DNA of 64,000 nucleotides, taken from assembly GCA_010405405.1 (NCBI GenBank), contig MU004245.1, forward strand, positions 375,256-439,255, read 5' to 3'. This DNA is from Microthyrium microscopicum. Its lineage: Eukaryota. The position numbers were made by a program, and so were the translations under genes. Below, one piece after another: positions 7,901-54,179 of this stretch. Each line of letters opens with the position of its first letter. Positions within the stretch are counted from its first letter, which is position 1. The notes beneath the pieces were generated by a model. It worked only from the letters and a program-made list of their open reading frames with translations. It did not search any database and was not told where the DNA came from.

Positions 7901-10900
7901 TCGGGAGTTGACACGAACGTTCGACTTGAGCTTGAGAATCGATACGAGTGTCAGAATTCCCGGTCGGTCATCCTCTGGAAGATACTTGGTGACGTTCGAG
8001 AGCTTAGATAATTCATCGCCAAGAGCCTGGAGTTTAGGGAGCGCCTCAAGGTCAGAAAGTTGAAAATCGATATCTTCCAGCGTAGCCCGAATGACAGAAC
8101 CTTTCTTGCGTTGACGAACTAGAGTATCCACTAAGATGTCATCTTCATCCTCATAAGGATCTCTGCTTGGTACTAGCAGCGACAATAGAGCAGTGATATC
8201 TTCTTCTTCTGGGGCGAACAAGAAATCGACCTTGGTGTTGAGAACAGTAATGGCCACTGGAGGTCGACGAGTTGATGGTGGATCCATAATTGGTCCTCGC
8301 ACTTTGATACGAGCGAGCGCAACGCTGATACCATTCGGTTGTAGATCCGCTTGTATAGAACTACTATGCAATGAGATACCACAGACTTTACCTTTAATAT
8401 CGACGTTCATACCGTCAAGCATCACAATAGCCTTGATTGGGAGAGTGTTTTGTGGTGTAGCTGTCGTGTCTGATGCCTCCAGTCGTTTGACCTGTGCCTT
8501 GGGCTTCGGACTCGGGGCACCCGCGAGCATGGTACTGTTCGAGGCCATTGAGCTGCTCAGATCAAGGACTCCACTTAGACCTCCATAGCACTCCAGTCTC
8601 TCGTCAATCTTTTGCATGTTCACAGATATTTGTAGTGGAGCTGTAAAAATGTGGACCTCCTGGCCTTTGCTTCGACTACGAATGTATTTTAACTCAATGT
8701 CAAAGGCTGGCGGCTCAGGTAAAACTCGAGAAGAAGTAGTATTTGGTGGTATACCAAACTTGACAATGTCCTGTCCGGGAATTCCAAGAGTGAAACGACC
8801 AATGTTTGCCCCAGCGACCACAAAGAAGCCGGTTTTTCGTATCTGAACCTCAGCGTCTAGTATAGTAAGCAGGACCAAGGCGTCTGATGTTGCATCCAGA
8901 TTGTGAGGCTCCGGTATTGACGTAAGATGCTCACGGACTCCAAGTTTAACTTGTTTAAACTGAACTGATAAGGAGAGAGAGGATTCTGAAGCTTTCTCAG
9001 CTGAGGATTGGGCGTGAAAGTCTCGGGATGTATCCGGGGCAGGTTCTGGAGGAGTAAGTACTCGCTGGGCCAGTACAAGAAGTAAACGAACAGCCGAAAG
9101 ATCCATTTGACCTTGTAGACAGCCTACTATCACATTAATGTCGTTGTCTGGTTGAATTGGTGAGTTCGAAGCTGAAGGCGCTTCATCGGACGGCGACTTT
9201 AAGGGGTCCTTCACTATCTGTGGCTTCTTTTCGCTTCGTCTATAATTTTGTCCATCATGGAAAGCGCCAGGCATTGCCGCAAAATAACTATCTTCCGAAT
9301 AGGCTTCCGAATCAGCCTCCGAAGCCGCATCGTCGGAAGTCTCGCTTTCGGCGTTTTCATCCACATTTCCAGCCCATGGAATCATTATCATAATTTCATC
9401 TAAGCTGAATAATGTTTTTGTTTCGAGGGATGTTGCTGGAGCGGGGAACTGCTTTGCGACAGGAGTATGCGCACCCGAGCCTAACTCAGTCGAGTCTGTT
9501 AGCTGTTTCTCCGATGCCTCGTCATCTGGTACAGGAGCATTTGCCGGTGAACGTGGTGTCGGAGTCTGGCATGTGGAATCGTCATCCTGTGAGGGGATAA
9601 CTGGGGGCTCAGATCGAGAGTGGCCGCTGAATTCTGTGTTGTCAACTGAGAGACTCGGTCTGCCAGCCTGAAATGTCTCGTCGCCGTGTGAGCCAGGTCT
9701 TGATAGGCTACTCATAGCACTTTCAAACATCATGCTTTCGGCTTCGTCGTGAGTGAAGAATTTCGATTCAGACATTTCATCCGGCTCACTCTGGCTTGAA
9801 TCGCTGCCCGAGCTGGGGGGCTCATCATCCTCAGCAAACGGAGCGGATCCCGGTATTTGTTGCGAGTCTCCCAAAAAACCCAACCCGAGACTCGATTGAG
9901 TTTGTGTCATCGGGTTGTATTCCACTTCTCGTTGATCTATACGTTCACTGTGTACTGAGGCCGACATGTGAGATGCATTTAGTCCAGAGACGGCCATGCG
10001 CAAAGGGAATTGCTCCGATTGTTTGAGGAACGACGATTGGCCTGAGCTCTGATGAGATTTCTTTCGACTACGTTTGGATTCTGCTCGAGGCCCACCGGGT
10101 TCAGAGATCATCATGGATTGAGCCATGTCACCCTCATCGTCAGATGCGTCAGCGAATCTATCGCTCTCATCCACAGGCATATGTTGAACAGCGTGATTGT
10201 GGTCCGAAAAACTCATAAGATCCTCAGGAACGTCGTCATCGGGCTCTACTGTGTAATGTTGCAATCCCAGCATTTGCGACTCTGAGACTGAACCCTGCAT
10301 CATTGAAGCCATCATAGATGGTGCCATAGGAAATTCATCAGAGTCAGAGGACTCGGGATGGGATCGAGTTGAGTATCTTGACATTTCGGGGCTTGCCTGG
10401 CTTTGTGGAGGACTTGAAATCGCGGACGAGTGGCTATTAACTCGCGACAAGGTTGCGAAAAATGCTTGGTTCGTTGTCAAGTCCGCCCGGATGCCACGAA
10501 ATACGGCGCGTCGCTTGTTCTTCTGCTTGGAGACCAAGCTCTGGGCCCGCTCAGGGTCGTGCCGCCGTGAAGTTATTCCAAGGACATCAACTTCATGGAC
10601 ATGAAAGCCGATTGAAGCTTCCAGGTCTTCTTGTATCTGCAAATGTGCAGGAATTTCATGCGCGGGAACATCGAACTCGATTACAAACGCGACTTTTTGA
10701 ATGGTGACCTGCAAGCGATCCACTATACCCTTCAAATAACCAGCTATCCAGTTAGGCAAGCTTATTTCTACGCCGGTTCCTTCGCCGGGCTCATCACCGT
10801 ATTGCAGATCGGAGTCCTCGAGGTTAGTGGCTGGCTGTTCTTGTATTGCTTCCTCTAGTTTGCGTAGCTCTGCCTCCGGCAATTCTGCCAGAACATTCTT

Positions 10901-11357
10901 TGCGACTTCCTTGGTCGATGGCAGATGTTGGCCATCTTCGTTTGTAGCTTCGGGCTCGTGTCCTTCTGTGGGAGATCGACTGGACCGGATACAGATCTCG
11001 ACTCCATTTACTTCAATCTGTATGCCACTCGCGAAGATATTGGCTGGTATCGTGACTCGAAGGGTTTTTATTCGACCTTTGGTAGGTATGAGGGAGTCTG
11101 GGAGGCCGGCGAGCTTGGAGATTTTCTACATGGAGTCAGCAGTTGTCCACTATCAGATGTTCCAAGCTTACATGAACATGTAAGCCGACATCTTGAAGCT
11201 CTATAGAGCTTTGTATGCCCCATTCAATCTTGAGTTGGTCTAACTTCAAGCTGTCGGTATCCAAAATCTCTAGTTGCGACAAGGCCAGAAGAAGAACTCG
11301 CTCTTGGAGTGAAGAAGGGAGAAGTTTGGAGGCAAATGAAGGGATCCATGACGCCAT
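4945..11357 (-). CDS. ATG2: Autophagy-related protein 2 (lipid-transfer protein)
   Basis: About 2100 aa. Chorein-N-like start, then FDGYDW, DHVPTSTWRKF, LPLRLHVDQDTLDFITRFFEFKD and KLDYKPKKVDYAGLRSG. Predicted introns 11126-11171 and 4957-5008; ends RRRLEDKYK*. Confidence 0.95.
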
Positions 11358-27318: not shown

Positions 27319-29936
27319 GATTTAGCCTTGACTAGTTCCACCGTTACATAGTAGATACTGGCACATGTTATGCTAATACAGCTACCTCTACAACAGCTAT
27401 TTAATATATAAGATTTTGGCCCCAACCGTTAATGTCTATGTCTAACTCCAAGATTCCCAAAATGTCTAAGTTATTACGTAAGCAAGACTTAGTAGAAGAT
27501 ATATCCTAATTTAAGATACTACTAAATATAGGTCTTAAAAAAAGCCTAAAAGATAATAACGCCCCTAAATCTAAAAAGATAATATCCTTAATACCCTAAA
27601 AGATAATAATAAATACTAAATATGCTTAAGGTATAATAAGTCTTAAGTACTACTAGATTTAAGGTTATAGCCTTTCTTTTAATAAAAAAGTAAATATATA
27701 AACGCCTTCTAGCTATTTTATTAGTTTTTTCTCTTATCTTCTCTGTTATCCTTTCTTCTCCTTAATCCTCTTATAGTTCTTAGCCTCTTATTATCTCTTT
27801 ATATATATAATAATCTATTAAGTTATTATAGAATTGTTATAAGAAGTTTAAAGTAGAAAAGGCTCTCTAAAATTTAGCAATTTAGCTTTATATTTAAATT
27901 CCTCTATTATTCTATAAGGCTCTAGCCTATAAAGATAGTTCTTTTTAAGTAGTTCTAATTTTTAATAGCCTTAAGTACTCTAAAAAGATTATTAGGTAAG
28001 TAAGAATATTAACTCTCTAAGAACGTACTTAATTACCTAAGTTTTTTATTAAAGATAAAGCTTTTGCTTCTTTTCTTTCCTTTCTATAATAATTTCCCTT
28101 TCTTTAATCTTAAGTATAACTCTTACTTTAATCTTTTATTTTTTTATATACCTTATATCTTAAATAGCGTCTATTTTAATAATAAAGACTATAATAAGTT
28201 ATACCTTTATAAAATCTACTAGTAGTTTATTATAACTTACTACTTTACTTATATTAATTTATATTTAAAGTTATAGTATGTTAAAACCTAAGTAAATATA
28301 GAGAATATAATAAACTATCTAATTAATATAAATATTATAATATTAATAAAAAGTATTATCTACTACGCTAATCTTAAAAAAATAGTCTTTTAATTCTATA
28401 TAACCTAACTTTAGTCTAAAAAGTATTTTAATAACTCTAATATCTATTCTAAAGTAGAAATCTAATTTATAATAGTTAACTTATTTAATAAGAGTATATA
28501 GTTTATAACTATATTTACCCTTAGTCTACTCCTTCTACTAAGTATTATTTAAAACTCTTTTAATAAATATTTTAAGATAAGTAGTACTCTTTAATTTAAC
28601 TAATAAATTAAGGTAATTAATAAACCCTTCCTTAATACCTTACTTAATAAGCAAGTTAATATAATTATTACCTTTAATATTCTTATACCTAAGTATTTAA
28701 TAAATATAAATTAGTCTAGTAATTTACTTATAGGCCTTATAGAATATATATATAAACTATTAGGCTATCTTTACGTTAAGATTATATAAAAAAAAGTATA
28801 CTCTCTAATTATTAATCTAAATATAAGTAAAAGTAAAATCTTATAAACCTACGTCTACTTAATCTCTTAAGGCTTAGGCTACTATAAAGGCCTTAATATT
28901 ATATACTAAAGTATGCTATAGTAAGCTAAAATACTACTACTTTTTAGTTAGTATATTAATCTAATAATTTCCTTATTTTAAAGTATAATCCTTAAGTATA
29001 GGATTTTAGTAAAAAAAGGTAGCCCTAACCTTACCCTTAATATTTAAGCTATTAATAAAATAGTAAATATAATCTAAAGTATCTTAAAAAGTCTATAAAT
29101 AGAACCTCTTAGCCTTAAGGTCGCTATAAATAAGATTAAAAATAGGCATACTTTACTAAGGCTTATAAATAAATAAAGAGAGCTTTAATAAACCCTAAAA
29201 ATTAATACCTAAATATAAGGCTTAAAGCTAGAAAACGAGAAGGCGAAATAATAACTAATATAAGGCTTACTATAAAGCTTACCTTATTAATAGCTTACGT
29301 ACTTTAACTAAAAACTTTTTAAGGGCGTGTTTCTTTTAAATAATATAAAATACTACTAATTAAAAGATTTCTAAGATCCTTTATTAAACTAGGAGGAGGC
29401 CTAATTTAACGTTATATATTACTCTTATAATATTAATTTAGCCTCTACTAATAACTAATACTAAGTCTCTTTAAATCGTTTGTAGGGTAGCTACTACTTC
29501 CTTCTAATATTCTTAAATAAAATATTTATATAGAAATATTAATAATATTATAAATTTATAAATTTACCTTAAAGCTATTAAATTAGCTCTATACTTTTTT
29601 AATTTTATAAAGTAACGTAAAATTATAAGGGCCGCGTTAGCCTTTTCTTTCCTTATTACTATATATTTAGCCTAATTTAGATAATTATCTAAATAAACCT
29701 TTAAAATCTTATAAAAGTCTATAAGAAGAATATTAACTTTATTATTATACTTTAAAAAAAAAGACTTTACCTTAAAAATAATAGCGTAAGTCTATAGTTA
29801 TACTAAATAAAAGAGTAAAAACTTCTCTAATATAAACTATAATCTATAAAAAGTAATCTATTAGTAGTTAAAGGTAAGTTCCTTCTAAAGAAACTACTTC
29901 TAATAACTAGTTATTTTACCTACTATAGCTATAATA

Positions 29937-30163
29937 TGTGACGAGCTGCGGAACTCAGAGCGAGCAGATAATTAGATTGTATTCTAGAATCTACGAACGG
30001 GAGAGAGAGAGAAGAAGATCTAGAAGAGCTGCAGATCTACGAGGGATGTAAGTCCGCTTAGCAGATCCTCAGACGCGCTAACCTCCTTAGGTCTAACGCG
30101 TGATCTTGTAATAAGATCTCTCTTACAATACCGCTATAAAGTCTATAAAAAGGAATTATCACA
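29937..30163 (-). repeat. 3' LTR of the Gypsy element
   Basis: Direct repeat of 37364-37590; about 25 differences by eye, all C/T or G/A transitions. Confidence 0.95.
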
Positions 30164-33100
30164 CGACCCCCTCCTTCAGCATAGCTCTCCGGGCTATAAA
30201 TTACTAATTATAACTGCTTTCCTAATCTATTCTATTCCAATCCGGTCCAGTCTAGTCTAGTCTAGTTCAGTCTAATCCAATCTAACAAACTTTTGGTAAT
30301 AAATAATATTTCGATCCTTCTATAGTACAACACTAACCTTACTAGTCGTTTAGAGCATCTCGACCTCCGGTCTGTTAAGGTAACTGTTAAGAAGCATTAA
30401 CGAACCCTAAGATATTTTTAGAATACTCCGGTTCTCAAGTTCTAGTAGTCTAGTAGTTAGTGATCCTATTAGTATAGGGGAATTAGTAGTATAATTATTT
30501 ACTCCTCTTAATCAATAAGAACGCTGTTAGAGTCATAATTAACACCGTCGCTAGTAGGCTCTAGTATTAGTGGTATCTAGGTGGGATATAGGCTTAGCTT
30601 GTTGGGGTGCCAAGCGTGAAACTTAGTAATAAGCTCTGGCGCGTTCTTAGCAGCTGTTTAATCATACCATTTAGCTTTATCGTAACTAGTATACTTGATC
30701 TCGTATTATAGCTTTTTATATTAACCGGCGAAGCGACTGTTAACGATAGCGTTAACAAACTATTCGTTGTTGTTTATGATTTCTCTAATGACTACTAGTA
30801 GTGGATTAGTATGCCTAAGTAACTTAGCGTCGTCTATAATATAATAAAGGACCTAAGCGTGGAAGATATTATATATCTTTATAAAAGAGAAGAGATTGAG
30901 TTTATAGGTGACGGCATTAATTTTCTTAATTATATGGAAGGGACCTATATTCTTATCATCTAGAGTCTTTAAGGGATGTGAAGTAAGGTAATTTCGTGTA
31001 TCTAAGCGAACCTAGTTATCTAATAATAGGTCTAGAGCCGCGTGGTGATAGCGGTTGGCGTATTCTGCTTACTAAGCTTAGGCTTAGATTAATTGCTTTA
31101 TTAAGTAATTGTATATCTCGGCGTGACCTTTCTATATCGTATTTATATTAATAGTATCCTTATTAGCAGCTATAAAGGCATTTGTAGGTTTTGGGAGGCG
31201 ATGTAAGGACTCGAGGCCTAAATAAAAGTTAAATCCGTTTTAAGCTTTAAAGAGTATAACTCCTATGGTGGCGTTTATGGCAGAATTGACTATAAATTTA
31301 GCAAAGGGCAGAAGAGCTACTTAGTTATCTTAATCTTAGTTAATAAACGCGCGTAAGAACTACTTGAGTGTGGTGACTGAGATTTCTGTTATGCCGTTAA
31401 TTTTAGGGTGAAATGCTGTATTAAGACGAAGTATTATATTTACGCGTTTATATAAGCGCTTTTAAAACGCGGAGATAAATTAGCTACTGTGATTTGAAAG
31501 AATTATTAATAGTTAGCTAACGAGCTTCCACACGTGGTTAATGAAGGCTAGTACTATTAAGTCTATAGATAGGTCTAGTAATAGGATGAAACGTTAGGTC
31601 TATGTATATTAGTCAACGACTACTATAACGTATTAATAAATTACACCTTAGTATAAATAGTGAGGTAGTAAGATGGCAAAGTTGATAAAGATATCTAATT
31701 ATATACGCTTAAGGAGAGGGAATTGACGTAAGAAGCCTTACTTCTTTTAGTGAACGGGTTTAGTAAACACGTATTTGTAGCCTTTAACAAAGCTCTTAAC
31801 GTCCTACAATATCTTAGGCTATTAGTAATCTTCTTATAGGTAGTAGTAAGTTGTTACTGTTCCACTATAGCCTATAGCTTTATAGCTATACGCGCTTTAT
31901 ATAGCGCGATGCTGAAGCTTATCTTAAGGGATAAAGATCCGATTATAGTAGAGGATTATCTTATCAGCAGCTACTATGTAGTCTTTAAGCTCGATTTGTT
32001 CTCGTTTTGGAGTGCTAAAGGGTAAGAAGAGCTAGTAGTCGGTCTTGGTATAATAAATAGCGATCATTGTTTTATTGTGCTCCGTTACGTTTATAATATC
32101 CTATAGGAATTAGTCGCTATTAAAATTTAGGAATAGGTTATCTCCTAAGGGATTAAGTAGCTCACCCTTAGGCGTCTCGTTGTTACTAAGAGACTCTCTT
32201 ATAAGATTAAGTAGCTTACCTATAGGATTAGAAATATCTAATTCATCTTAAGTAATGGTAGCTAAGTATAGTATTAAGAGGCGGGCGAATTTAATAAGCA
32301 ATATAGCTAGCTTTATTGCGTGTTCCGTATTAAATTAGTATAGGAATAATAAAAGTCAGACTTATTAAGAGACGTAAGGGTTATCGTCACTTTGTAGAAT
32401 ATTTTATAACTGACGGGTGAGGGTATTTACCTTTCCATTAGCCGTACTTAGGCGGTACTTTATTTTGAAGTGAAACTGGGAGAGGAACTTAGCTTATTTA
32501 GCTTATTGTTAAGAGAGACGTTTTGTTATTATAAACGTCTAAAGGTTATAGTAATTAAAGAATACTTGAATAGGGTCGATGGAGCTAAATAGCTTTGGTT
32601 TCTACTCTTTAAATGCGCGAACGATAGCTAGAAGCTCTTTATCGTAAATGTCATAATTATATTCTATTAAAGTCATCTTTTTCGAGAGATACGCGACTAG
32701 ATAAAGTTTCTTATCGTTACCTTTTTAAGAGAGGACCGCGGCATAAACCCAATCCGAGGCGTCTGTCTCTAGCTATATTTCTTTTGTATAATTAAAGTGA
32801 CGTAATATCTTAGCGGATGTGAAGTCTTGCTTTAGCTTCTCGAACGCACGTTCCTTTGGCTCATTAAGGTTTTAAGGGAAGATTACCATAGCGTCCTTCT
32901 TTATAAGTGCTATTAGCGGTGCTGTAGTCTTTAAATATTTAAGAATAAATCAATAGTAGAAGTTGGCAAAGCTAAGGAAAGCTTAAATGTCTTTTATTAA
33001 AGAGGGATGTTGCTAATTAACTACGCTTTAAACCTTTTTTAAGTCTATCTCGATGCCTTTAGTAGTAATAATCAGGCTGAGGTATTTAATCCGTTAAGTA

Positions 33101-36100
33101 TTAAATTCACACTTCTGGATATCTAAGTACAATTCTACTTTACCTATTACTTTTAGAACTAAGTGGGTATAAGCGGTGTAGCCAGCTTTAGTATTACTAA
33201 AGACTAACAGATCGTCTATATAGCCTATAACGAAGTTATTTAGGTAATCGATTAGAATATAATTAAGATAAGCTTAGAAGGTCCTTAGGGCTTTGGTGAG
33301 GCTAAAGGGCATAACTTTAAATTCGTATAACTTATAACGAGTTAGGAATGCGGTTTTATATTCGTCGTTAGGTTTAATGCGGATATGTGTGAAGGCGGCG
33401 ATAATGTCGAATTTAGAGAAGTATTTTGCATAATAGATATAAGTAAGTGTTTTTAATAGCTACAAAGGAACATTACGATTCTTTTATATAATCTTATTGA
33501 GTCTATAATAATTAATATAAACTTAAATTCCTTCTTCTAGCTTATATACATATAATATTAATACGGCGTAATGTGATTTACTAGCTTAAACTTAATTTTG
33601 ACTAAGTATTTAATTAACGTATTATTTAATAACAAGGGATTCTTAATAACCTAAGCTATTATAGTGGCGTTTAGGGATCGTAGCGTCCAAAATAATATTA
33701 ATAGAGTAATCTTATTTACCACAGTATGGTGCGAGTTTATTACCCAATTTTGGGTCGAAGACGTCTATATAATGGTGATATTTCTTTAGTAGGTGTTTAA
33801 GAATCTCGTCTCGTGAGAGAGGAGGCTTATTATACTTCTCTCGTTATTTTTTAAAATCCTTAGGTAAGATTTTGCTTAAGTTGATAGCAACGTCTTCCTT
33901 TAGTATAGGATCTAGGTCTAGAGGTTTCTTTTCCTTTTTATCTTTAAAGTCGTCAGGCCAGATTTCGTTAAATTGCCAGCCTTATTCTAGTAACTTAACG
34001 AAGGCAGTAGTACTAACCATAGTGACGTTTTTAAAGCGAGGGTCTGTCAGATTAACTGAGCGGCCTTTACAATCCATTAAGATTAGGCGGCCTATTAATA
34101 AGCAGTATATAAGGTAGTGGTCTAAGTTGAAGTAGATTTGCTTCTTGCCTCCTTTAAAAGTAACCTCGTGGAGGTCGATCTAAGGGTTGCTAAGGATAAG
34201 ATTATAGCTAGCGACGTTTATAATAAAGTAGCAGATTTATTCGATATGCCTTCCTAAACGGACGTTAACTATAGCGGCTTTATCGACTTTCGTGATAGCC
34301 TTACCGTTAGCTAATTGTATGATTTAGGGGGCGGAGAGATCAATAGTAGGGATCCTGTGTTGTTTAATAAAGTTAAGATGAATGATTCCCATCGCTCCAC
34401 TGTTAATGTTTATAAGGATGTTAATTTTCGAGTAGTAGCCTTATTTTAGAAAGAATACGGTACTAGAGGTGGTCCATTAGTCACTTACTATAGGTATGGC
34501 GACTACTTCTTAAGGACGGAAATCGTATGCCATAGAGGCGAGGGATATCTTAATGACAGCTAGTTTAGTGTCGTCGAATATGATAGGCTTTAAAAATGAC
34601 GCTCGTTAAAAATCGCCTTCTAGGCGCTAAATAGTCTTATCGACCTTATATTGAATTTATTCTTTAAAGAGAACTGGCTCAGGATTAGGTTCCTCCTTCT
34701 TCCGTCGTTGATTATGCGCTTCTTGCTTATTTAGCTCCTTTGCGCGTTTCTGTAGAGGAGCTTTCAGTTTTCCACATCATTATCGTAATCGTACTTATTA
34801 TAATTATCCTCTATAGTTGGGGACTGAGGAGATTAAATAGTAATTCAATCGTAGATAGCGGTAAACTTTATAATAATAGCGGTGACCTTCAGTTAGATTT
34901 TGGTATCTAAAAGGGCGTCTTAATCTTTATATAGTGTTGAGTTATGCCAATAGCTATGGCCCTTTTCTTTATACTTTATGTAACGGTTGTTAGCCTTTAA
35001 GGCATTATAGATGTTTAAAGAGCGGTTAAACTTTAATTTCCATCCGCTACCCTCAGCTACTAGACGATTGTTATTATCGTAGCTTTGTGGATTGGTAAAA
35101 AAAACGTATTTAATATAACGAGTAATAGTATATAAGCTCTTAAGGAAGTTGGTAAATGTTTTCGATTTTATGAAGAGCACTCTTTTTACGAACTTTAGGA
35201 GTAGAAGGGAACGTATTTTGATAATCTTATCTTAATTACTAAGCTTGGCTTCTCGTAAGTTCTTTAAGAAGCGGGCTAAGAATTGTTTAAGCTTCTTAGT
35301 AGGCTTCATCATAGCTTCCTAACTTTTAAGCTAGGTTTTAGCGGTGATATAACCATCTTTAATACCATACTCACGGTTTAAATTAAACTATATCTCTATT
35401 ACGGATAAATATAGGTTAGTTAACTTATGGTCACTTCGTTTGTCGATAGTACTAAACGCTTAATCCTCTGTCGCTCCTTAGACGACTTAAATCTTAAAGG
35501 TTTTTGTAAGATAGACTTATGCGTTGTTATTAAGGTAATTTAATACTTTGCCTTTCTAAGCGCGATACTTCTACTTATCCTTTCTTAAGAAGAGTGAAGG
35601 CTTATCGCCCTATACTTTAAAAAGAGAGGCGCTACCAACCAAGTTAAGGTTAGAGAAGGAAGTAGTTCAACGCAAGTTTAGTACCCTTAAAGGTATATTT
35701 AGGTTAGGTTAATCTATGTCTCGAGCTAAGGAGGTCTAGCGAAATAGATCATTATCTACTAACTTATCGCGATCAAGATAGGGATTAGTCGCCTTAATAG
35801 CTAAGGGTTTCTTTTAGAGAGCGTTAATCTAAACTTAAAGGATGGTAGCTTTGTCTACCTTCTCTTATAGAGCCTTATAGTATTTACCAATCTTGTCAAC
35901 GTGGGTAGCAAGTGCTTCCTTAAGCAGATCGTTATTATATTATAGTTCTTGTGCCTTCTAGCGGGTGGTTACTACTTCCTTAAAGATAATAGTATTGTCT
36001 TAAATTTACGCTTTAAGGTAAGTAATCTACTTTACGCGTTTATCGTTAGTTTTAGCTAAGTCTTATATCTCTTCTTAAGCTTCTAAAGCTTCTTTCTAGA

Positions 36101-37363
36101 GAGTATAGATTAAATTTATATTGCGAGCGTTTATATTTTATTTAATTTTAAAGAGGTAGGCTATGGTTTGAGAGGCCGATAATGAGGCGTAGAGCTATAT
36201 AATTAAGTTGTCTAGTGTAATTTCTCCTTTTAATAGACGTTCCAAGTCCGCACTCGATTTGATTAAGTAGTAAGAGTGATAGCGGAGGTCTAATTACTTT
36301 TCTTTACGACGGAGGTATACTCTTATATCTTTTAGCTCGTCGCCTTCTTTACTAGGCATCTTTTGTACTTAAGTAGCTTAGAAGATCAGAAGGTTCTTAT
36401 TGACGGTTAGAGTGACTAGTCGATTAAGGTCTGTTACTATAGGGTAGTAAAATATTAATACGGGTAATACTTTAAGGCCTTCAACTTACTAGCGTAGTTC
36501 CATTAGCTATTCGTGTATTCTAAAAGAAAGTCTAGTGTTATTATTAGGTTGGAAAGGAGCTGGTAACCGGTTATCTCTTATGTTCATTTAGTTTAATAAA
36601 GTTATTCGACTAGCATTTTAAGGGGCGTCTTCTGACGCTTTAGTCTCTTTACTTTTACGGCCTCGTTCTAATAGATAATTATCTTCTAACTCGTCTTTAT
36701 CTTCTAATAACGCTCTTAAGTTTAGTTTTAGCGGTTTTAATAGTCTTAAGACGCTCTTTACCGAATCTATTACTTTCTAGGTAGTATCCGGTTATACTAG
36801 ATCCTAAGTGTTGGGTCCGCTTTAATACTTGGCACGTATAGCGGAGGGGCGACGCGATAGAGATAGGTAACGCGAGCGTATGGGAGATAAAAATAAGTAC
36901 CGATTATTAGGCTAAGTACGAGTAATTAAAGACGGCGAGCGGGCTATATAACCATTAACTTAAGTCTATTAGTTAAGAGCCTTATTAGCTATAGTTATAA
37001 ATAATGAAGAAGGGTACTAGGAGGGAACGCTTATTTATTTGGTGTGTTTTAATAGTAAATGTGTTAAGTATAATTACGGATATTTAGTAGTAGTATAGAA
37101 GATAAACTTTAGTGTTCTGTAGAACTAAGGATGAGGGGTAATTAACGCTTAGACCGTTAATAGGTCAAAGAGTGTTAGGGAATCCTAACGCTTTAATTGG
37201 ACAAGGGGTTAGTGGAGCTAATAGATTTGGTGAATCTATGAAGGATCTTTAATAGGATTTAAGATCACGCGTGCGGAATATTGATCTATACAGGCGCTTC
37301 TTTGGAAGTAAATTCTAGGGTGCGCGGTGTAAGCGCGCGGGTGGTTGAAAGGTTCGTAGATTA

Positions 37364-37590
37364 TGTGACGAGCTGCGGAACTTAGAGCGAGTAGATAATC
37401 AGATTGTATTTTAGAATCTACAAACGGGAGAGAGAGAGAAGAAGATTTAGAAGAGCTGTAGATCTGTGAGGGATGTAAGTCCGCTCGGCAGATCCTTGGG
37501 CGCGCTAACCCCCTTGGGTCTAGCGCGTGATCTTGTAACAAGATCTCTCTTACAACACCGCTGTGAAGCCTGTGAAGAGGAATTATCACA
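37364..37590 (-). repeat. 5' LTR of the Gypsy element
   Basis: Direct repeat of 29937-30163, followed on the minus strand by the putative primer-binding site AATCTACGAAC. Confidence 0.95.
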
Positions 37591-40500
37591 TAATATTATT
37601 AATCTATATAATTTTACTATTAATACTAATTTCTTCTCTCTCTGCTCTATATTCTTATTTAATAACTAAATTGGCGTTAAATAAGATATATAATAATAAT
37701 AATAAAGGTAAGCCTTATAAAATACTAATACTTATATTTTATATTTCTATATAATAATTTAGGGTCTTAAGTTAAGCCTTATACTTAATTAAGAACTTAA
37801 AGATTTAACTTACCTAAATACTTCTTAGCTTACGCCTATGTAGATTATAAATTATATAGATATATAAGATGTAGTTAAAGGCTTTACTAATATTTAAAAA
37901 TAAGATTATCGTAGTAAATCCTTAATCCTAAGCTAGGTAGATATTCTTAATTAAATAATATAATATTTTATCTATACTCTAAGCCTTTTATCCCCTAAAA
38001 TAACTACGTAGCAAAATATCGTAAGTATTAAAAATATAATATAGCCTTGTAGCTATATATAATTCTATAAGCTTCCTAATTATATTTAGTAAGGTAATTA
38101 AGTAATAAGATTTTACTTATTTTAAATTATTCTTAATATTTTTTACTAGCTTATAAAGCGCGATAATAGTCACTTCTTTAAAGTACTAAGGATAATATTC
38201 TAAGTATATAAAAGCGTTAAATAAGCCTATATACGCTTATAAAAAAGAAACTCTAACTATATTAATATATCTATCTTTGTAGAAGAATACCTTTTTAAGA
38301 GCTTCTATAGCTACTCTATCTAACTTATATACTTTACTAGACTTTATATTCTTTACTGCTTAATATACTTTCTACTCTATAAAATTATAAAATTTAATAG
38401 GCTTAGAGTATCTTAATTCTAAGTAATTAATAATATCCTCTAAGTCTATAGTAAGTAGTAGTAAAAAAAATTTTACTAAAAGAACTCTACTTTTATTCTC
38501 TAGTATAATAGTAAAGCTATTACTATTTCTAAGTTAAATAATCTTAAAGGGATCTTTCCCTTTAACGTACTTTTTTAATAAACTTAATAGTTTCTAAGCA
38601 GAGACTTAATCCTTTAATAGCTTAGTAAATACTAGTTCTTATAATAGGTTCCTCTATTATTTTATAGTTTATTAACTCTAGTTCTTTAACTAGATTTAGC
38701 GCGCTTTCTAAGCTTTTTTTTAAAGATTCTTATAATAGCAGTTTTACTTTACTTTTTATAGTATTTATCTCTAATTATTAAGTACTATAATTATCTTAAG
38801 GAATATTTAATTATATTTTCCTCTAAAAAAGTATATCCTTAAAGGTAGAGTAGCTTTCTTAGTTACTTCTTAAATTACGTAAACTATATATAAGGTATAA
38901 TTATCTAAAGCTTTGCGTAAGTTTAGATTAACTAGCTTATTAAGATAGTCCTTAATATAACTCTAAAAGGCTTCCTTATTATACTTATTCTATTTTACTT
39001 ATAATATTTAATATTTACTTCTAATACTAATTTTAAGGATTATATATAATAGCTAATAGTTACTTACTACTTATAAAGCGTAATTATAAGAAAGGAAGTA
39101 TTAAAATCCCTAAGCCTAAAGTTATACTAATACTAGCAAAAAGTCTATTATAAAACTCCTCTAATTCTAGCGAGGTAAAATCTAAATCTTTATACTAACT
39201 AAGCTAAAATTAACTAATCTAAGAGAGAATATAAGATTAAGAACTAAGATATAGTATTAGCCTTAGGTGCCTATACTACTCTATAAGTTATAATAAATAT
39301 TAAAGTCTTTAACTATGTACGTAAGTCTCTATAGTACGTTAAGAAAGGCTTAGTAGACTACTAGTAGAATGTCTACTTCTTTTTAGCTAGCGTCTAGCGT
39401 ATCTTAATATATATTAGCAAAGTATACTAGATATTACTAAGTATTAATCTTTATTAAATACTAGTCTTTCTTATTATAAAGAATTTTCTAGTTCTTAATA
39501 TAGAGGTTATGGCTAATATACGTAGCTACTCTTAGTATAGGTATATAATTAGACTATACTAAGTAGTATCCCTTAAATGCCATAGTATAAGGAGCTACTC
39601 TATATTTATTAACCCATGGTTCCTAGATAGTAATTATATTAAACTTAAGTAGCTTGTTAGTTACTATAAAGTTCTTAAGCTATTGCTAGTTTAGGTAGGT
39701 CTTATTAGCATTATATTAAAGGATATTAAGACTAGAACTCTAGACGACTATAGGAGAGTTTACTAGAAGAGGTATATTTATCTAAGAAAGAACTTCATTA
39801 TACTAAGATATAATAATGCTTAGCGTAGGTAATAAAGACTACTACGTTGCTAAAGGTAACGCTACTTATAAGGATAGAGTCTAGAATAATGAGTCTATAC
39901 TTAGTTATTTAGGTGCTTAGTTAATTAGTAGACTTTACTTACCTTTTTACTAAGCTCTACTAAGGCTTTATCTTCTTTACTTGTTATATTCTTATTACTA
40001 TCTAAGGAGGGTTTATCTAGGTCCTAATTACTAAGTTCTATAGGTAGTGCTATTAACTTAATTAGACTAGCGTAAAAGACTATAACCTTATAGTCCTTCT
40101 TAGCCTTCTCGTTTTTAATACTCTTATAGATAACTTTAGCTTCGTAAATAGTAAGGGACTTAGCTTAAGCCTATTCTTCTTTCTTTGCTAACCTAGCTTC
40201 TTTCTCTTCTACTAGACGATCTACCTTTTCTTAGTTAAGAGCTTCTTAATCTATTATCTTCTACGTCTTTATACGTTTATAACGTTTATTATTCTTACTT
40301 AAGTTAATACCTTTAGGTTCTTTACGTTTTAAAGTAGTAGACTAGATTTCATTAGAGTATAGTAAGGTTAGTATATATAGTACTTATTCTAGCTAGGTTG
40401 GTTAGATCTTTCTTAGGCGTCCTAGTCTATATTTCTAAGAATTACTAGCATTATTAGATTTATCTAAGGTAGATGCCCCTTTGCTTTTCTTTTTATAATT

Positions 40501-42810
40501 ACTATTTACTCTGTTAGCATTAGAGTTAGTTACCTTTCTCTTATTCTTTTTACTACTTATAGATTTAGAGTTACTAGATAAGGAATTCTTATAGATTTAA
40601 GGGTTTTTTAGACTTAGATATTTAGTAAAGAGGAATACCTTACGTGCTATAATCTTTTTTACTTCTTAATTAAGTTTGTAGAGCTTAGCTCTATTAACTT
40701 TAATTTAGGTAGTAGTAAAAATAACTAGGTCCTAGTCCTTTTATTCTTAGTCTTAGCTTAACGTAATATTATATCTATTACTTAGTAGCGTATAAGTTTA
40801 AGACGCGTTATTTATATTTTCCTTTCTTTTTATAAACGTATAGTCTTTAGCGTTTTTTAATAAAGAAGAATTTTTATCTTCTTCGTCTATTAGCTTATTA
40901 GCAAGTTTAGTCTTACTCTTAGACTATACTTTAGTAATTTAAAGTATTAATGTTGCCTATTAGTTAGTTTAGAGGTTTAGTAGACGCTCTAAGTCTTCTA
41001 GATTCTCTTATATACTACTTAAGTTCCTACGTATTAGCTAAAATAAGGTATTATTATCTAGATACTTATAAGGCTTATTCTTAACTCTTTTTGCTAAAGC
41101 TTTAATTGCCTTAATTTTCTTTATATAAGTATTATTATTAGACTAATAGATAATAAAGTTGTATATTATATATAAAGTAACTTTATAGGTATATACTTAT
41201 ATATTATAGTTACTTATATACTTATTATATATAGTTAGGCGCTAGTAATAAAGTCTATAGTAATAGAATTATTAGTAGTTATAGTATATCTTAGCTTTAA
41301 AGTTATTAATATAGAATTTAGCTCTTTTAGGAGCTCTCTAAACTTAGAATGTACCTTTAAGTATATAGTTAATATTTAAGGGGTTACTAAAGGCTATAAT
41401 TATAGAAGAATAAGGTTTATCTTTTTTCTTTATATTTAGCTAACGTAACTAGTAGACGTAATTAAAGGAGTCTATGTAAGGATTTTATTTAAAGATAGAA
41501 GTAGTAATTACGGTAAGGTCCCTAAGGACCTTATCTAGTTAATTAAGGAAGATATTATAGATAATAACGAAATAGATTTATATATTAAACTTAGCTCTTT
41601 TAAATACTAGTAGCTAGAGGTATTATGTTCTATTAGCTCTTGCTAAGTCTATAAAGGTATTAAACTTAAGTTTAATGTTGCCTTTATGTTTTTAAGTAAC
41701 TATATAAAGGCTAATAAGGTCTTAGTTAACCTTTATAAGCTTTTTATAAACTAAGTCGTAGAGGAAGCCTTATCTAGAAGTCTCTCTATATTTATTAGCG
41801 TTAGATAATTTTATAAATTTAAGGGTTATAAGAGGATTAACCCTCTTCTTACTATTAGATTAGTAAAGGCTATAGAAGGGTTTATTAGTATTTATTAGTT
41901 ATTATTCTAGGGGTCTAATACTAGCTACTTATATAGTGAGTTAATTAACTTAGTTTAAGATATTATTAAGCTTTTACTTATTACATAGCATTATTTAGAG
42001 GAATTTATATTGCTTATTCTTATGCTATTAAATTTTAGTTTATAAGAGTATATTAAACTCTTAGTAAAGTTTATTTAAGGTATGTAGTTTAGCATTATTA
42101 GTAAAGAAGAGTTTAGCTATTTTAGTAATTCTAATCACATTATTAATTATGCTACTAGTTTTATTAAAAGAGGGTTTAGCACTAGATGCTATGATTATTT
42201 ATCTAGTTGCTATTACTTAAGACTTAAAAGCTCTAAGGTAGTTTATTATTTCTATATCTATAGTATTATTAGGCTATGCTTTTACTCTTTAGTCTTAATC
42301 TTTACTTTACTAGCTAGGCTAGGGGGTAGAGTTTAAGATAGAGATTATTTTAACTTATTTAGCTATTTATTACTTAAATAATATGCTTATTTTAAGTATT
42401 AGATAGAGTATAGCTCTTCTTTTAAGGATATAAAGATAAATATAGAGTATATAGGTATAAGTTAAGTTATTATAATAGGGAAATTAGGGGATTTTGGGGA
42501 AAGGTATATACTTATAACCTTCTAAGGACGCGTCTAGATAAATAACGCGTAATATCTTAATAGCGCCTTAAGTTTTTAAAAATTAGAGAACGTAGAGAGT
42601 GATAGCTTAGTTAGCTAGATCTTTTAATGCAATAAAGTATTTGAGATTTTAAAAATTTGGATGATGTGTAGAATGTTGTTTTTTCATATATGTCTTCCTA
42701 AGTTGGGTTGCGATCTGTACTTCCAAGGTACAAGTATATCATTGAATTTGATCTCCAGTCCACACGCGTGATAATTTATCCTCTCACTCTCAGTCCTTCG
42801 GAAAGCTCCA

Positions 42811-44293
42811 ATGGCTACCTTCTTAGACCTTGAAACGACAATTTACGCTGGAGAGCCAGAGGACCATTGCTTTCCTGTTGTCGATGACAATATTGCCCAG
42901 GTCAGTTAGAGCTTGGGCTTTTAGGTAGCATTCTGAAGACTCACTAGATATTGAGGGCGAGACCAGTGAAGCACCAAACGGCTCCAGTAAATACAGGATA
43001 AAGCAATCTGTGGAAGACTCGATCGATTCAGTCTCCAGCGAGAAGACTGAAGCGGGCGAACGTACATATGCGGAATTCCGGAAAGGAAGTACGTGGTTTA
43101 AGTTTTGCTTGACAATTATGAATTTTTACCTCAACTGAAGTTAACGCCTAGTCTAGAATACCCCTTGCCAAATGATCTTGTAAGTCAATTGCTCATGCAG
43201 CTGGACTTCAAGAACTAACCATCATGTTGAATAGAAAGAACAACAAAGACTCAGTTTGTGTCAACCTTTTACACTTCAAGCCATTGTTATTGAATAAGAA
43301 CAGATCTTCAGCACGAGCTATTTCGAATTACTCTCGAAGGAAGAATGTTCCTTGCACCCATAACAAACCCCTCGAGTGCTCTTGATGTTGCTGCAGGTCT
43401 GTTTCTCCTCTATCAGCTCAATGTTTGCATATGGCATATCCAACCATAGTAGCTGACTCTCACTAGGTACCGGAGTTTGGGCGATCGAATTTGGTAAATA
43501 CTCTACTGAAGTGATTCTCCATAGCAATCATGAGTTGACGTGCCATTCCAGCAAATCTCTTTCCATCAACACAAGTTCTTGGAACCGATTTGAGCGCCAT
43601 TCAACCCAAAGAGTACTTCAACGCTACCGATCAATCCCGTCAGAACACTGACCTTTTCAGACTTCCTAAAAACTGCCACTTCGAACTCCACGATGCCGAA
43701 GAAGACTGGAACTTCCCCGAGAAGTTCGACTATATTCACGGCCGCGCCCTTCTATCCTGCTTCACCGACCCAGCCGCTGTCCTGAAACGTGCTTACGATT
43801 CCCTTACCCCCGGCGGCTATCTCGAGCTTCACGATGGCAAATTTCCCTTCCAATATATTGGTGAGCCGCCCAAGGACTCAGCGATGTACAAATGGAACGA
43901 GACAGTCATGGCAGGTGCAGCTAAAGCTGGGCGACCATGGACAGGTACTCCAAATTATAAACGGTGGATGGAGGAGCTTGGCTTTGAAGATGTGGTGGAA
44001 AAGCTGTATTACTGGCCGACAAGTGGTTGGGCAAAGGGAGAGTATTATAAGGCGTTGGCAGCGTATTGGCAGGTGAACTTGGTGGGTGGCTTGGAAGGGA
44101 TTAGTATGAAAGTTATGACGGGCTTAGGGTGGAAGGAGGATGATGTGAGAATTTTCTTAGAGGAGGTCAGGAAGGATGTTAAGGATACGTCTATTCATGC
44201 ATATTTGCAGATGTAAGTTCTTTTGATATGTTTGTTGTTTGGAGACACTAATTATATTTTAGTCATGTTGTATACGGCAGGAAACCAAGTTAA
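42811..44293 (+). CDS. SAM-dependent methyltransferase, LaeA/Tam-like family, multi-intron
   Basis: YPLPND, DLQHELF, LDVAA|GTGVWAIEF, GTDLSAIQP, NCHFELHDAEEDWNF, FDYIHGR, LTPGGYLE and HVVYGRKPS*. About eight short introns. Confidence 0.85.
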
Positions 44294-49553: not shown

Positions 49554-51460
49554 ATGTCTTACTTTCCCGGCCAGCAAGGCTATCACGGCGGTGGACAACC
49601 GCCCCCAAACGGCGGATGGCAGCAACAACCACCACAGGGCTACCCGCCTCAAGGAGGCTATCCGTAAGCTTCCATACATGCCCATGTAACAACAACATCC
49701 TTTGCTAACCTAAATCTTTTCTCTAGTCCTCAAGGCTATTCGCAACCTCCTCCTCAACCCTATTACGGCAACGCCCCTCCTGCTCCTCAATACGGTGGTT
49801 ATCAACAGGTCCGACATTCGTACGACATCATACACACATTCGCTAACGTCCTTGAAGGGTCCTCCTCAACCTCAGTACGGTGGTCATTCTCCCCGCCCTT
49901 ATCCTAGTCCTGGTCCAGGTATTTATTCTTAATCTCCCAGTATGTCTAAAAGAAAACATCCTCATAGAAGTTTGCAGCCCTCCCTTCAGCACAGCACAAT
50001 GCTTATGTACAAGGAAATCATAATGCGCCCCCTCCCCCACCAAACAACGCCGTATCGTTCGGTCATGGCGCGCCGAGCGACTACAAATTCCAGTATTCCA
50101 ATTGTTCGGGTCGACGGAAAGCACTTCTTATCGGTATCAACTACTTTGGTCAGCGTGGTCAACTTCGCGGATGTATAAACGATGTCAAAAATATGAGCGG
50201 ATATCTTAACAGTCACTTTGGATACAAGAGAGAGGACATGGTACTCCTCACCGATGATCAACAGAATCCAATGAGTCAACCTACCAAAGCCAACATCCTT
50301 CGTGCCATGCACTGGCTGGTCAAAGATGCTCGACCAAACGATTCGCTCTTCTTCCACTATTCTGGTAAGGCTTCTAACAAATGGCAAAGCCACAGCTCTA
50401 ACTGTATTAGGTCACGGTGGTCAAACACCCGATCTAGATGGCGACGAAGAGGATGGTTATGATGAAGTCATCTACCCTGTGGATTTTAGAACAAATGGAC
50501 ACATTGTCGATGACGAAATGCATAAAATCATGTAGGCAAAAGCCTCGGTCTCTAAATGATCTTGCTAATCGAATTTTTAGGGTCCAAGGTCTTCAACCTG
50601 GTGTAAGGTTGACAGCAATTTTCGATTCCTGTCACTCTGGATCTGCGCTCGATCTGCCATACATCTACTCCACACAAGGCATGCTCAAAGAGCCAAACTT
50701 GGCGAAAGAAGCCGGACAAGGTCTGCTTGGTATCGTATCTTCCTATGCTCGTGGAGATTTGGCCGGAATGGCTACCAGCGCTTTCGGTTTGGCCAAGAAG
50801 GCTTTCAAAGGCGACGATGTGTATCAAAAGAACCTCCGAACAAAAACTTCTCCCGCAGATGTTATCATGTGGAGTGGCAGCAAAGACTCCCAGACCTCGT
50901 ATGTTTTCCCTGATAATCAACCCTTTCTCCCGGTGACCAGTGCGGAGGAGATGAATTTGCTCTGGCGGAATCAATATGCGCTTCAAAGAACAGCCTTCTG
51001 AACGCATATTTGATGCTTTACGGCTTCACGATTTATGATATAAAGTTCATGTACTATAGCAATTGAGTTTATACCTGCCTTGAAGGCGAATGATTTGGCT
51101 AGCAATCCTGCAGCCAGCATTCGTCTTCAGGGCAATGAGGCACGTTGGGTCTACTGGTCCAAGACGACTCACGACTGACTTCTTTCGAATTTCTGCTAAC
51201 TTTTCAACAGAGCTGATGCCTCTATTGCTGGTCAAGCTACGGGTGCCATGTCTTGGGCTTTCATTAATGCATTGAAAAAGAACCCACAGCAGAGTTATGT
51301 TCAGCTACTCAACAGCATCCGCACCGAACTTGAGGGCAAATATGACCAAAAACCACAGCTCAGCTGCAGTCATCCTCTTGGTAGGCGTTCTCATAAATTG
51401 TTTTCAGCTAGAGTAGGCAGCTAACAACGTGCAGATACCAACCTCCTTTATGTCATGTAA
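49554..51460 (+). CDS. MCA1: Type I metacaspase with a Pro/Gln/Tyr/Gly-rich prodomain
   Basis: [25 protein letters not shown] (catalytic His), AIFDSCHSG (catalytic Cys), [26 protein letters not shown] and [18 protein letters not shown]. Confidence 0.96.
50899..51210 (+). other. Long structured intron in MCA1 (candidate cis-regulatory RNA or intronic ncRNA)
   Basis: 312 nt, versus about 45-75 nt for the other MCA1 introns. Consecutive stems at 50970-51014, 51039-51073, 51076-51134 (17-bp stem plus inner stem) and 51143-51173. Confidence 0.55.
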
Positions 51461-51939: not shown

Positions 51940-53379
51940 TCAAGCTCTCCATCTTGGCGCTCTAAGATCTACAGATTCAATCCTCACCCATAAGACAGCA
52001 ACGGCCGCACCCGCCATAAGAGTACCAACCATAGTGCTCAGCTTCTCATACCCCATCGACGCAGATCCAGGTCCATCACGCAACAATGCACCTGCCGTCG
52101 GCGTCCCAATCAAGCTTCCAAATCCTCTCAACATATACAGCACCCCATTGACGCTCGAAAAGTTCTGTACTCCAAAGAGCTCTACCAATGCAATGGGAAA
52201 CAGTGAAATGTAGGCGCCAGCGAAGATGCCGTACGTGATAGCAAACATTGCAAACAGGATTCTGGCCTTTTCCTCGCCTGCGGTCAGTGTCGAAGGCAAC
52301 CACAATCCCAGCGCCGTCACCGCACTAAGCACCGTACAAAATGCCAACGTATTCAACCGTCCAAACCGATCCGCCAAATGTCCAATCACGACCTTTCCCA
52401 CCGCACTCGCCGCATTGCTCATCGCAATGAAATTCGCCCCTGATGCCGCACTATACCCCAACACACGCGAATAAGCACTAAAGAAGTAAATCGGCGTATA
52501 ATACGCCGCCGCCTGCAACACACACCCCAACGCCTGCGCCGCAAACTTACGACTCCTCACAAGATGCCAATTCACCAACGGAATCCTCATCCTCCTTAGG
52601 CCAGTCCGCCCCGCAAGTTCAACTCTATTCCGCTGCAGCGTAGCAGCATCCCACTTCATCGCAAAACTAGCGCCCGCAATCAACACAAAGCCCACACCAG
52701 CCAGCACCCTTAACCCATTTCGAAAGCCAAAACTATCGTTCATCAGCCGTATAACCGGCGCCCAAAACACACCACCCACCCCCGTCCCCGCCAAAACCAC
52801 ACCCATCGCTAACCCCCGCCGCTGGTCAAACCAGCCCGGCGCAACAGTCACGGCGGGTATATAAGCCGCACACGTACCAATACCCAACAACACGCCCTGC
52901 GTGACCAAGAAGCCCGTCAAACTAGTCGCATAGCTGGCAAGCAATAGACCTAGCGCAAAGAGAAATGCGCCAAGCAGCGTGATAGTTCGCGGACTAAACG
53001 CCTTGCAGCCAGCGGCCGCGAGGGGCGCGAACATGGTCATTAGGGACACGCCTAAGGTGCCGATGAGGTCGATGGTGGCGGGAGAGGCATTGGCGAATGG
53101 TGATGGGTTGGATGGGGTGGAGGTGTCGGCGAGGGATTGGTAGAGTTCTTGGTAGACGCCAAAGGCAAAGTTTATGCCGCAGCCGGTGAAGGTTAGGGTG
53201 AATGAGGCTGCGACTATGAGGATTGAGTTTAGTTTTGGGGAGGGTTGGATTGCTGGGAGGATCGAGTGGATTGGTTGGGACCTTGCTCTTTCTATGTCGG
53301 TTGGGGGAGGTTGTGATGGGTAGGGTGATAGTTGGATTTCGTGATGGCTTGTTGTTTGGGTTATGGTGGTTGTCGCCAT
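51940..53379 (-). CDS. MFS transporter, monocarboxylate porter (MCT-like) family
   Basis: Intronless 479 aa ORF with GINFAFGVYQ, WFDQRRGLAMG and GHLADRFGRLN; about 12 hydrophobic segments. Confidence 0.9.
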   Translation of the reverse strand: MATTTITQTTSHHEIQLSPYPSQPPPTDIERARSQPIHSILPAIQPSPKLNSILIVAASFTLTFTGCGINFAFGVYQELYQSLADTSTPSNPSPFANASPATIDLIGTLGVSLMTMFAPLAAAGCKAFSPRTITLLGAFLFALGLLLASYATSLTGFLVTQGVLLGIGTCAAYIPAVTVAPGWFDQRRGLAMGVVLAGTGVGGVFWAPVIRLMNDSFGFRNGLRVLAGVGFVLIAGASFAMKWDAATLQRNRVELAGRTGLRRMRIPLVNWHLVRSRKFAAQALGCVLQAAAYYTPIYFFSAYSRVLGYSAASGANFIAMSNAASAVGKVVIGHLADRFGRLNTLAFCTVLSAVTALGLWLPSTLTAGEEKARILFAMFAITYGIFAGAYISLFPIALVELFGVQNFSSVNGVLYMLRGFGSLIGTPTAGALLRDGPGSASMGYEKLSTMVGTLMAGAAVAVLWVRIESVDLRAPRWRA

Positions 53380-54179
53380 TTTGGTTTTGAGTTTGATCTT
53401 TTCTTGGTATGGACCGACGTTTACAGTTCTATGTAGTAATTGTGGGACTGGCTTTCTAAGTAGTAAGTTTTATACCTTCAAATGGCACTTGATCTACGGA
53501 AAGTTAGTCATAGTCGGTTAAGTATTACCCGGCTTGATCCGAAGCAATAGAAATGTAAGAGGGGAAGTTAGGAACAAGTGGAGCTCCAAAAGTCAACACC
53601 ATCTTTCCAACTTCACGATACACTCTGTTTACTCTCCCAACAATGCATCTTCAGCATAAGGCTACCCAGCCGGACTTGACACTTGTGGCTCAAGCTTCAG
53701 GTCCAAATTGCAACTCTAAATATAGCATCTTCAGGCCTGACGATCAGAGCGTAAGCAGCCAATGACGTTGCCGTTGCTGTCATCTTTGAAAGGGACTTCA
53801 GTTCCCCTTTCGACGAGTTATGAAACCTTTGTTCAAGAATAGTTCTAGAAAGAGTAGAACATATCTATGGACTTCATAGTTCATACTGATAATCATTAAT
53901 CTTCCCAGAATGTAGAAGATTCGGGCCGCACCAGTTTTTCGGCGCAATTGCCTCTTCCAGGGTCTATAACTTTATATCGGATTTCACATATTACACAGCC
54001 CTTTGATCATTTCAATTCACCAAAGCACTGGCCTGAAATCGGCAGTGTATCTTATTTGTCCCGATATCTCAGATCACCGAGACTGGAAGATTTTATTCAA
54101 ATATAACCGACGTATTTGCACCGACACTCGCTCTCTCTACGTCCTATCCAATAAATCTCCTATAAGCGCCCACTACACC

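Follow-up and report, generated by a model that had tools for sequence, protein, structure and literature searches.

A conserved intronic hairpin and a candidate alternative C-terminus in a metacaspase gene of Microthyrium microscopicum

The metacaspase locus and its sixth intron

The window analysed here, 64,000 nucleotides of contig MU004245.1 of Microthyrium microscopicum, contains a Yca1-like metacaspase gene (Peptidase_C14) at 49554..51460 on the plus strand. The gene runs from its ATG to a canonical TAA across seven introns, matches Pfam PF00656, and has homologues named metacaspase. Exon 6 (50581..50898, +) contains the DSCHSG motif and ends with the residues SGSKDSQT-S. The 312-nt intron 6 that follows (50899..51210, +) has a GTATGT donor, a GCTAAC branch site at 51195-51200 and a CAG acceptor, and its position is conserved in orthologs. 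An earlier sequence-only reading of this DNA had placed a 312-nt intron after SGSKDSQTS. That intron is genuine: it has GT..AG ends, and a single contig from run X1 (presumed RNA) skips all seven introns of the gene, this one included. A DNA search finds intron 6 as a single copy in the 37-Mb genome of 58 contigs.

Among named sequences, those most closely related to exon 6 are metacaspases of Dothideomycetes. In an exon-6 tree of 102 columns and 89 rows, the window falls near Venturia, Verruconis, Trichodelitschia and Lineolata, and long and short versions of the intron are scattered; with 16/80 branches well supported, the tree is too weak for counting losses. The genome holds a weak second exon-6 match, L083 (G000:C1:2296410-2296496; 55% over 29 residues), perhaps a distant metacaspase paralogue, at which the RNA element described below was not found. 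Other features of the window are: a convergent MFS_1 transporter gene downstream (51940-53469, -); a stop-free open frame of 2058 codons (4949-11125, -); and an AT-rich block (28000-44000; GC 0.22-0.39 as against about 0.48 elsewhere), probably repeats that have decayed through repeat-induced point mutation.

Intron 6 had been described as a run of consecutive structured hairpins, and all four are present at the positions given: hp1 (50970-51014), hp2 (51039-51073), hp3 (51076-51134) and hp4 (51143-51173). As had also been noted, they end just before the branch site, with 21 nt between hp4 and GCTAAC. Comparison with dinucleotide shuffles divides the run. Both hp1 (z -4.2) and hp3 (z -7.3) beat the shuffles, with 0/500 as good in each case; hp2 (z -0.4, 159/500 as good) and hp4 (z -0.6, 130/500) are at chance. 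The entire intron folds with z -2.7 and -2.9 in two runs, and its core, 50965-51180, with z -6.2 on the plus strand and -3.3 on the minus strand. The use of G-U pairs, which had been taken to indicate pairing at the RNA level, is true of hp2 (2/13 pairs), hp3 (3/26) and hp4 (1/10) and not of hp1 (0/18).

The stable hp1 (50970..51014, +), which covers part of the read-through tail and its stop discussed below, folds better on the minus strand (-16.1 kcal/mol) than on the plus strand (-13.6 kcal/mol). In 11/11 orthologs, the corresponding 55 nt about the stop score z between -1.1 and +1.1, so that hp1 is particular to this species. Among the four hairpins, only hp3 recurs in orthologs; it both beats the shuffles and shows ortholog covariation. 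The structure is a single extended hairpin flanked by two conserved motifs, rather than four consecutive hairpins.

A conserved RNA element in the long introns

The element of which hp3 forms part spans about 95 nt, 51050-51148, and comprises: the sequence UGUA-N2-4-UA; a long covarying stem; and the sequence AYGRG..RCGUU. In the window, the first of these is UGUA-CUA-UA(G) (51050..51059, +), a putative site of PUF or CFIm type lying at the base of the conserved hairpin. It is followed by the 5' strand of a lower stem and an internal loop (51060..51075, +; CAAU against GUUG at 51144-51147, and UUUAU against AUGAG), as seen in the fold shared by orthologs and in local folding. The conserved upper stem, hp3 (51076..51134, +), has 26 pairs and carries compensatory changes among orthologs. 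The 3' motif, AYGRG-(U/G)Y-RCGUU(GG) (51135..51148, +), is the conserved side of the internal loop, the 5' side of which is unconserved.

Orthologs came from a scan of metagenome contigs. The best 80 of 366 confirmed relatives comprise 51 loci whose intron is complete and sits at the same codon, 24 intronless loci and 5 that are cut off. The complete introns are bimodal in length, at 50-113 nt (n=37) or 318-475 nt (n=14), and the 3' motif, written A[CT]G[AG]G..[AG]CGTT[AG], lies right after the long stem in 14/14 long and 0/37 short introns. Among the cut-off loci it is present in 1/5 (L002), and the other four stop short of its position. The 64-kb window has one site that fits this pattern; 263,511 bases of loci contain 18, and 15 of those 18 are element sites. 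With the near-duplicates L005, L016 and L043 removed, 13 elements are left, and UGUA-N2-4-UA stands 73-109 nt before the 3' motif in 13/13 of them as compared to 1/37 short introns; both this pattern and that of the 3' motif were defined from the very sequences counted. The chance rate of UGUA-N2-4-UA is 0.017-0.038 per 40-nt slice of shuffled intron. The UGUA is unpaired in 12/13 local folds, a result favoured by the folded fragment starting there.

When the stem is walked up from the 3' motif in the 13 elements, 143/156 cells are paired, compared with 54-82 when slid; the first figure is inflated, since the 5' register was picked as the best-pairing one. In a MAFFT alignment of 11 loci, from which the window and L002 are excluded, 90.3% of stem cells are paired, and 5/15 pairs and 18 cells have changed on both sides. 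The double-sided cell count is matched by 0/500 shuffles. The double-sided pair count is reached by 131/500, hence it is not above chance, and most double-sided changes separate two clades of 5 and 6 sequences. The stem in the window has additional changes that preserve pairing. Model R2 (92 positions), built from the 11 loci without the window, matches 51048-51151 at 38 bits (E 2.8e-8 in a search space of 330,598 bases), its only match within the window. It matches L002 weakly (16.6 bits) and finds no match in any short-intron locus.

These comparisons bear on whether the hairpins could be the remnant of a MITE or chance inverted repeats. The lack of G-U pairs in hp1, its folding on both strands and its restriction to this species would suit such an origin, as would the shuffle-level scores of hp2 and hp4. 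A single genomic copy argues against a MITE, and the presence of this element at the corresponding position in distant orthologs, where it shows compensatory changes and a preference for the sense strand, argues against either source. A motif pattern search gave 2 matches as compared to 2 for its control, and the second match is without a hairpin. For hp3 and its motifs, both sources are refuted. As an account of the hairpins generally this origin is highly improbable; for hp1 alone it is possible.

From UGUA to motif end, the element measures 87-123 nt (mean 96), and most elements fold locally as one extended hairpin. In the window, the fold containing hp2, hp3 and hp4 is predicted at -51.8 kcal/mol and the extended fold at -41.7 kcal/mol. 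The hp2/hp4 arrangement would bury both flanking motifs and compete with the lower stem. Because it is predicted to be 10 kcal/mol more stable, the lower stem is uncertain in the window.

Two further features were seen in related introns. In L013 (1250-1430) and L016, about ten tandem units of 16-17 nt directly follow the 3' motif and extend the intron to 451 nt, with the element intact. In L003, L004, L029, L039, L040, L056 and L057, a second conserved block, approximately CAGCGAGGCGTTGGCGG, lies shortly after the tail stop; as part of it is complementary to the conserved stem's 5' arm, alternative pairing is possible.

The sequence-only reading had called the structured RNA undescribed and proposed comparison with Rfam. 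No family reaches its gathering score in the window, a local Rfam search of the intron gives chance-level matches only (E 7-10), and Rfam 15 matches neither the window nor any of 9 ortholog loci. The RNA has nevertheless very probably been published already. Structure #12 of Gao, Jones and Rivas 2021 (PMC8216456), called 'metacaspase 1B intron', is found in Pezizomycotina, was seeded in N. crassa, and comprises 257 sequences from 247 genomes, with 16 significant pairs and an average length of 87 nt. Like the element here, it is a covarying structure of similar size in a Pezizomycotina metacaspase intron, at about one per genome. Because the element agrees in gene, size, copy number and range of taxa with what the available part of that paper reports, we think it very probable that 51050-51148 is structure #12. 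The table there includes N. crassa, which has two metacaspases according to the accessible text of PMC7849911, and A. fumigatus is absent from it; in our exon-6 tree, the loci nearest Penicillium have a short intron or none. In the available text of PMC8216456, structure #12 is given no mechanism beyond the possibility that an RNA-binding protein recognises it, and no intron number, motif, coding tail, retention or UGUA site is mentioned.

A read-through tail and a probable short form of the protein

If intron 6 is not removed, the frame of exon 6 continues through the donor for a 33-residue tail (YVFPDNQPF...YALQRTAF) and ends at a TGA at 50999-51001 (50899..51001, +). The stop predicted earlier for intron retention is thus correct. 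The accompanying view that retention gives a plain truncation is not upheld, as the retained segment reads as a conserved alternative C-terminus with coding selection in relatives.

Unspliced gene calls among homologues read through the intron 6 donor, and 40/111 tails starting SY end in [DE][MIL]xGxxx(x)-stop, compared with 3/5220 stop-bounded control peptides. In tails bearing F[PSA]DEP close to their start, this ending is in frame in 33/39 despite unequal lengths. Purifying selection on the read-through frame is detected in four of five pairs of relatives: L003/L004, with tail pN/pS 0.17 as compared to 1.1 and 1.8 in the other frames; L023/L014, at 0.32; L008/L013, at 0.40; and L023/L026, in which 5/5 changes are synonymous. 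The fifth pair, L007/L008, gives no coding signal (pN/pS 0.75, with frame 2 lower at 0.49). Three tail pairs that share no sequence give a pooled p of 1e-8. Exon 6 (0.01-0.06) evolves far more slowly than the tails, which are about 30-125 residues long and fall into several unrelated families between lineages; this wide variation fits a loose function.

The donor keeps the frame open in 12/12 distinct long introns as against 8/28 distinct short ones, raw counts uncorrected for kinship. Open-frame length by itself is insignificant in 11/11 (P 0.05-0.35), and L040/L043 keep the RNA element and have lost the stop (149-residue read-through). Compared with 123 tails, that of the window is best matched by P0164 (z 8.6), a sequence that came from a search whose query included the window tail. 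The window tail also begins with the FPD..PF of the commonest tail family. When one tail was used by itself as a query for homologues, no candidate appeared among longer proteins. Within M. microscopicum, protein similarity is the one direct indication that the tail is coding. Taken together, the comparisons suggest that the 5' part of the long intron is an alternative C-terminus under coding selection in relatives, and by extension probably one in this species.

Public models P0018, P0028, P0055 and P0232 splice from within the tail to the next exon. Their part-tail, part-canonical ends could be gene-calling artefacts or a third isoform.

Several short contigs of relatives, which we infer to be transcripts, keep the tail. 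P0005 (a 1651-nt contig) equals P0233 (a 32.5-kb contig) minus the upstream intron, with the entire tail kept. The Venturia-like P0105/L044, P0078 and P0242 have their upstream junctions joined and the tail retained; in the genomic relatives P0086, P0043, P0239, P0241 and P0243, the frames begin inside the upstream intron. The Hortaea-like P0045 shows the same joined-junction pattern as compared to P0226-P0228 and P0230. Such contigs could also be partly spliced pre-mRNA. The genomic loci L014, L023 and L026 are without the last intron and the remaining introns of the catalytic domain, and keep the long intron, tail and hairpin; because they lack upstream introns, a missing junction counts only where a close genomic relative bears the intron. 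In Verruconis gallopava, both KIW02895.1 (tail) and KIW02896.1 (spliced) are annotated, with identical N-termini. The retained form was not seen in M. microscopicum among the contigs of one run, in which intron 6 has no coverage and rare variants are dropped.

The tail forms cover positions 1-176 of the 233 in the Pfam caspase domain, and the spliced form covers 1-228. In an alignment with Yca1, the short form is without Pfam positions 177-233, including the DA..G..TGAMS segment, two helices and the terminal stretch. Because positions 177-233 are missing, the short protein is probably inactive as a protease. AlphaFold2 gives a pTM of 0.28 for the tail form P0100 and 0.43 for the spliced control P0093, both from shallow alignments.

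A stop far upstream of the last exon junction can trigger nonsense-mediated decay, and on retention of intron 6 the stop lies 378 nt upstream of that junction. This distance would suit a mechanism in which the element either helps splicing or switches the transcript to unproductive retention, by shortening or blocking an unusually long intron, the retained messages being degraded and the tail never becoming a stable protein. The confinement of the element to long introns, its persistence without a stop in L040/L043, and the fact that only the spliced form was seen in this species fit the same account. Purifying selection on tail codons and a C-terminal motif would not be expected of a message that is never productively translated, and the 3' motif pairs with its own donor no better than with those of other species (-11.0 as against -11.1 kcal/mol over 13 elements). 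We regard this account as rather unlikely. Pairing of the 3' motif with the 5' splice site was itself a candidate that had looked attractive in L023/L026; it was rejected as a general mechanism on these energies, and the donor-motif pairing has near-zero probability in 12/13 whole-intron folds.

Proposed role of the element and comparison with known systems

The element begins 48 nt past the tail stop and ends 62 nt before the acceptor. Because it lies between tail stop and acceptor, it is both part of the pre-mRNA intron and part of the 3' UTR of a short message. We consider it somewhat better than an even chance that retaining the intron, or polyadenylation within it, gives rise to a truncated metacaspase, the level of which is set by a UGUA-reading protein at the hairpin. 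Of the two parts of this proposal, it is likely that the gene makes a second, shortened protein, and the hairpin may control its production. The proposed link between tail and hairpin rests on their co-occurrence.

The mechanism would involve alternative fates of one transcript. When intron 6 is spliced, as shown in this species, the full metacaspase is made. When it is left in place, either because the whole intron is retained or because the transcript is cleaved and polyadenylated within it, ribosomes would enter the tail through the GTATGT donor, which reads without a stop as Ser-Tyr-Val, and would add a short alternative C-terminus before terminating. This protein would retain both catalytic motifs and an N-terminal region rich in Q and P, without the last quarter of the caspase domain. 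A UGUA-reading protein, of the PUF4/5 type or CFIm25, could bind the foot of the hairpin and, with the 3' motif, tune the amount of the short isoform or the stability or translation of its message. A downstream alternative donor after the stop occurs in 1/13 elements and A-rich poly(A) hexamers in 2/13, and on these counts neither of these two routes has sequence support. By analogy, the short protein would most likely act as a protease-dead scaffold, an aggregate binder or a brake on the full enzyme.

The sequence-only reading had offered either a splicing-control element or a hosted non-coding RNA. A conserved, covarying structure is indeed present, and a cis role for it in isoform control is the best reading; a hosted snoRNA is unsupported. 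In the latter scheme the tail could be real and the hairpin a passenger, a stable RNA, snoRNA-like or other, released after splicing. Long fungal introns with conserved hairpins can host snoRNAs, as exemplified by the intronic H/ACA candidate #04 in the available text of PMC8216456, and the 3' motif here is conserved in sequence along one side of an internal loop. The other side of that loop is not conserved, Rfam is silent as described above, and the absence of convincing C/D or H/ACA boxes noted earlier is borne out by low box counts in the 13 elements. An H box (ANANNA) follows the hairpin in 0/13 and ACA lies within 12 nt in 3/13, with a single conserved hairpin only; an exact C box (RUGAUGA) occurs anywhere in the intron in 2/13, and D boxes (CUGA) are scattered. 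We consider a passenger RNA unlikely.

The position of the element also admits a purely cytoplasmic function, in which it would serve after export as a 3' UTR signal that localises the short message or controls its translation, with no part in the choice between splicing and retention. In every locus with an intronic stop, the motif starts 110-274 nt past the tail stop, and PUF sites work in 3' UTRs (PMC4654594, from the text available). We think this very unlikely as the whole explanation.

A bolder extension of isoform control would be an old RNA switch in the main metacaspase gene of filamentous ascomycetes, in which UGUA and hairpin choose between the full death protease and a conserved protease-dead isoform with a C-terminus of its own. 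We hold this tentatively and think it more probably wrong than right. If true, it would place at the level of splicing a split between the cell-death and protein-quality roles of one metacaspase gene. Fungal metacaspases have roles in death and in aggregate clearance according to the consulted portion of a 2026 review (PMC13304501), in the text of which the word 'isoform' is absent. Literature searches, covering few subscription journals, found neither the tail, the two-isoform reading nor the UGUA site, and no short splice forms of fungal metacaspases. The coding tail and UGUA site offer direct tests for an orphan published structure, and several public gene models ending in the tail may be real isoforms rather than annotation errors.

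Two RNA systems resemble the proposed site. In the accessible text of PMC4654594, PUF consensus sequences include the UGUA-N2-UA of Puf3 and a nine-base form of Pezizomycotina Puf4, and act in 3' UTRs. The candidate site here is like them in having UGUA, 2-4 bases and UA, 3' of a stop codon; it is unlike them in having a fixed place at the base of a long hairpin within an intron, with a spacer that varies between species. Retention of the detained intron of MAT2A is regulated via CFIm25, which reads a UGUA-type site adjacent to a hairpin (PMC8139829). The likeness lies in a UGUA next to a hairpin in a retainable intron; MAT2A is mammalian and unrelated in sequence, and the available text does not present its retained form as giving a second protein.

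A conserved truncated isoform, if true, would provide a new way to separate the death and aggregate-clearance roles, and past knockouts would have eliminated the two products together without this being noticed. Short inactive splice forms are made from caspase-family genes in animals: caspase-2S, caspase-9b and the short forms of c-FLIP. These have no homology to the tail or the RNA element here; likewise by alternative processing, they lose the C-terminal part of the caspase fold.
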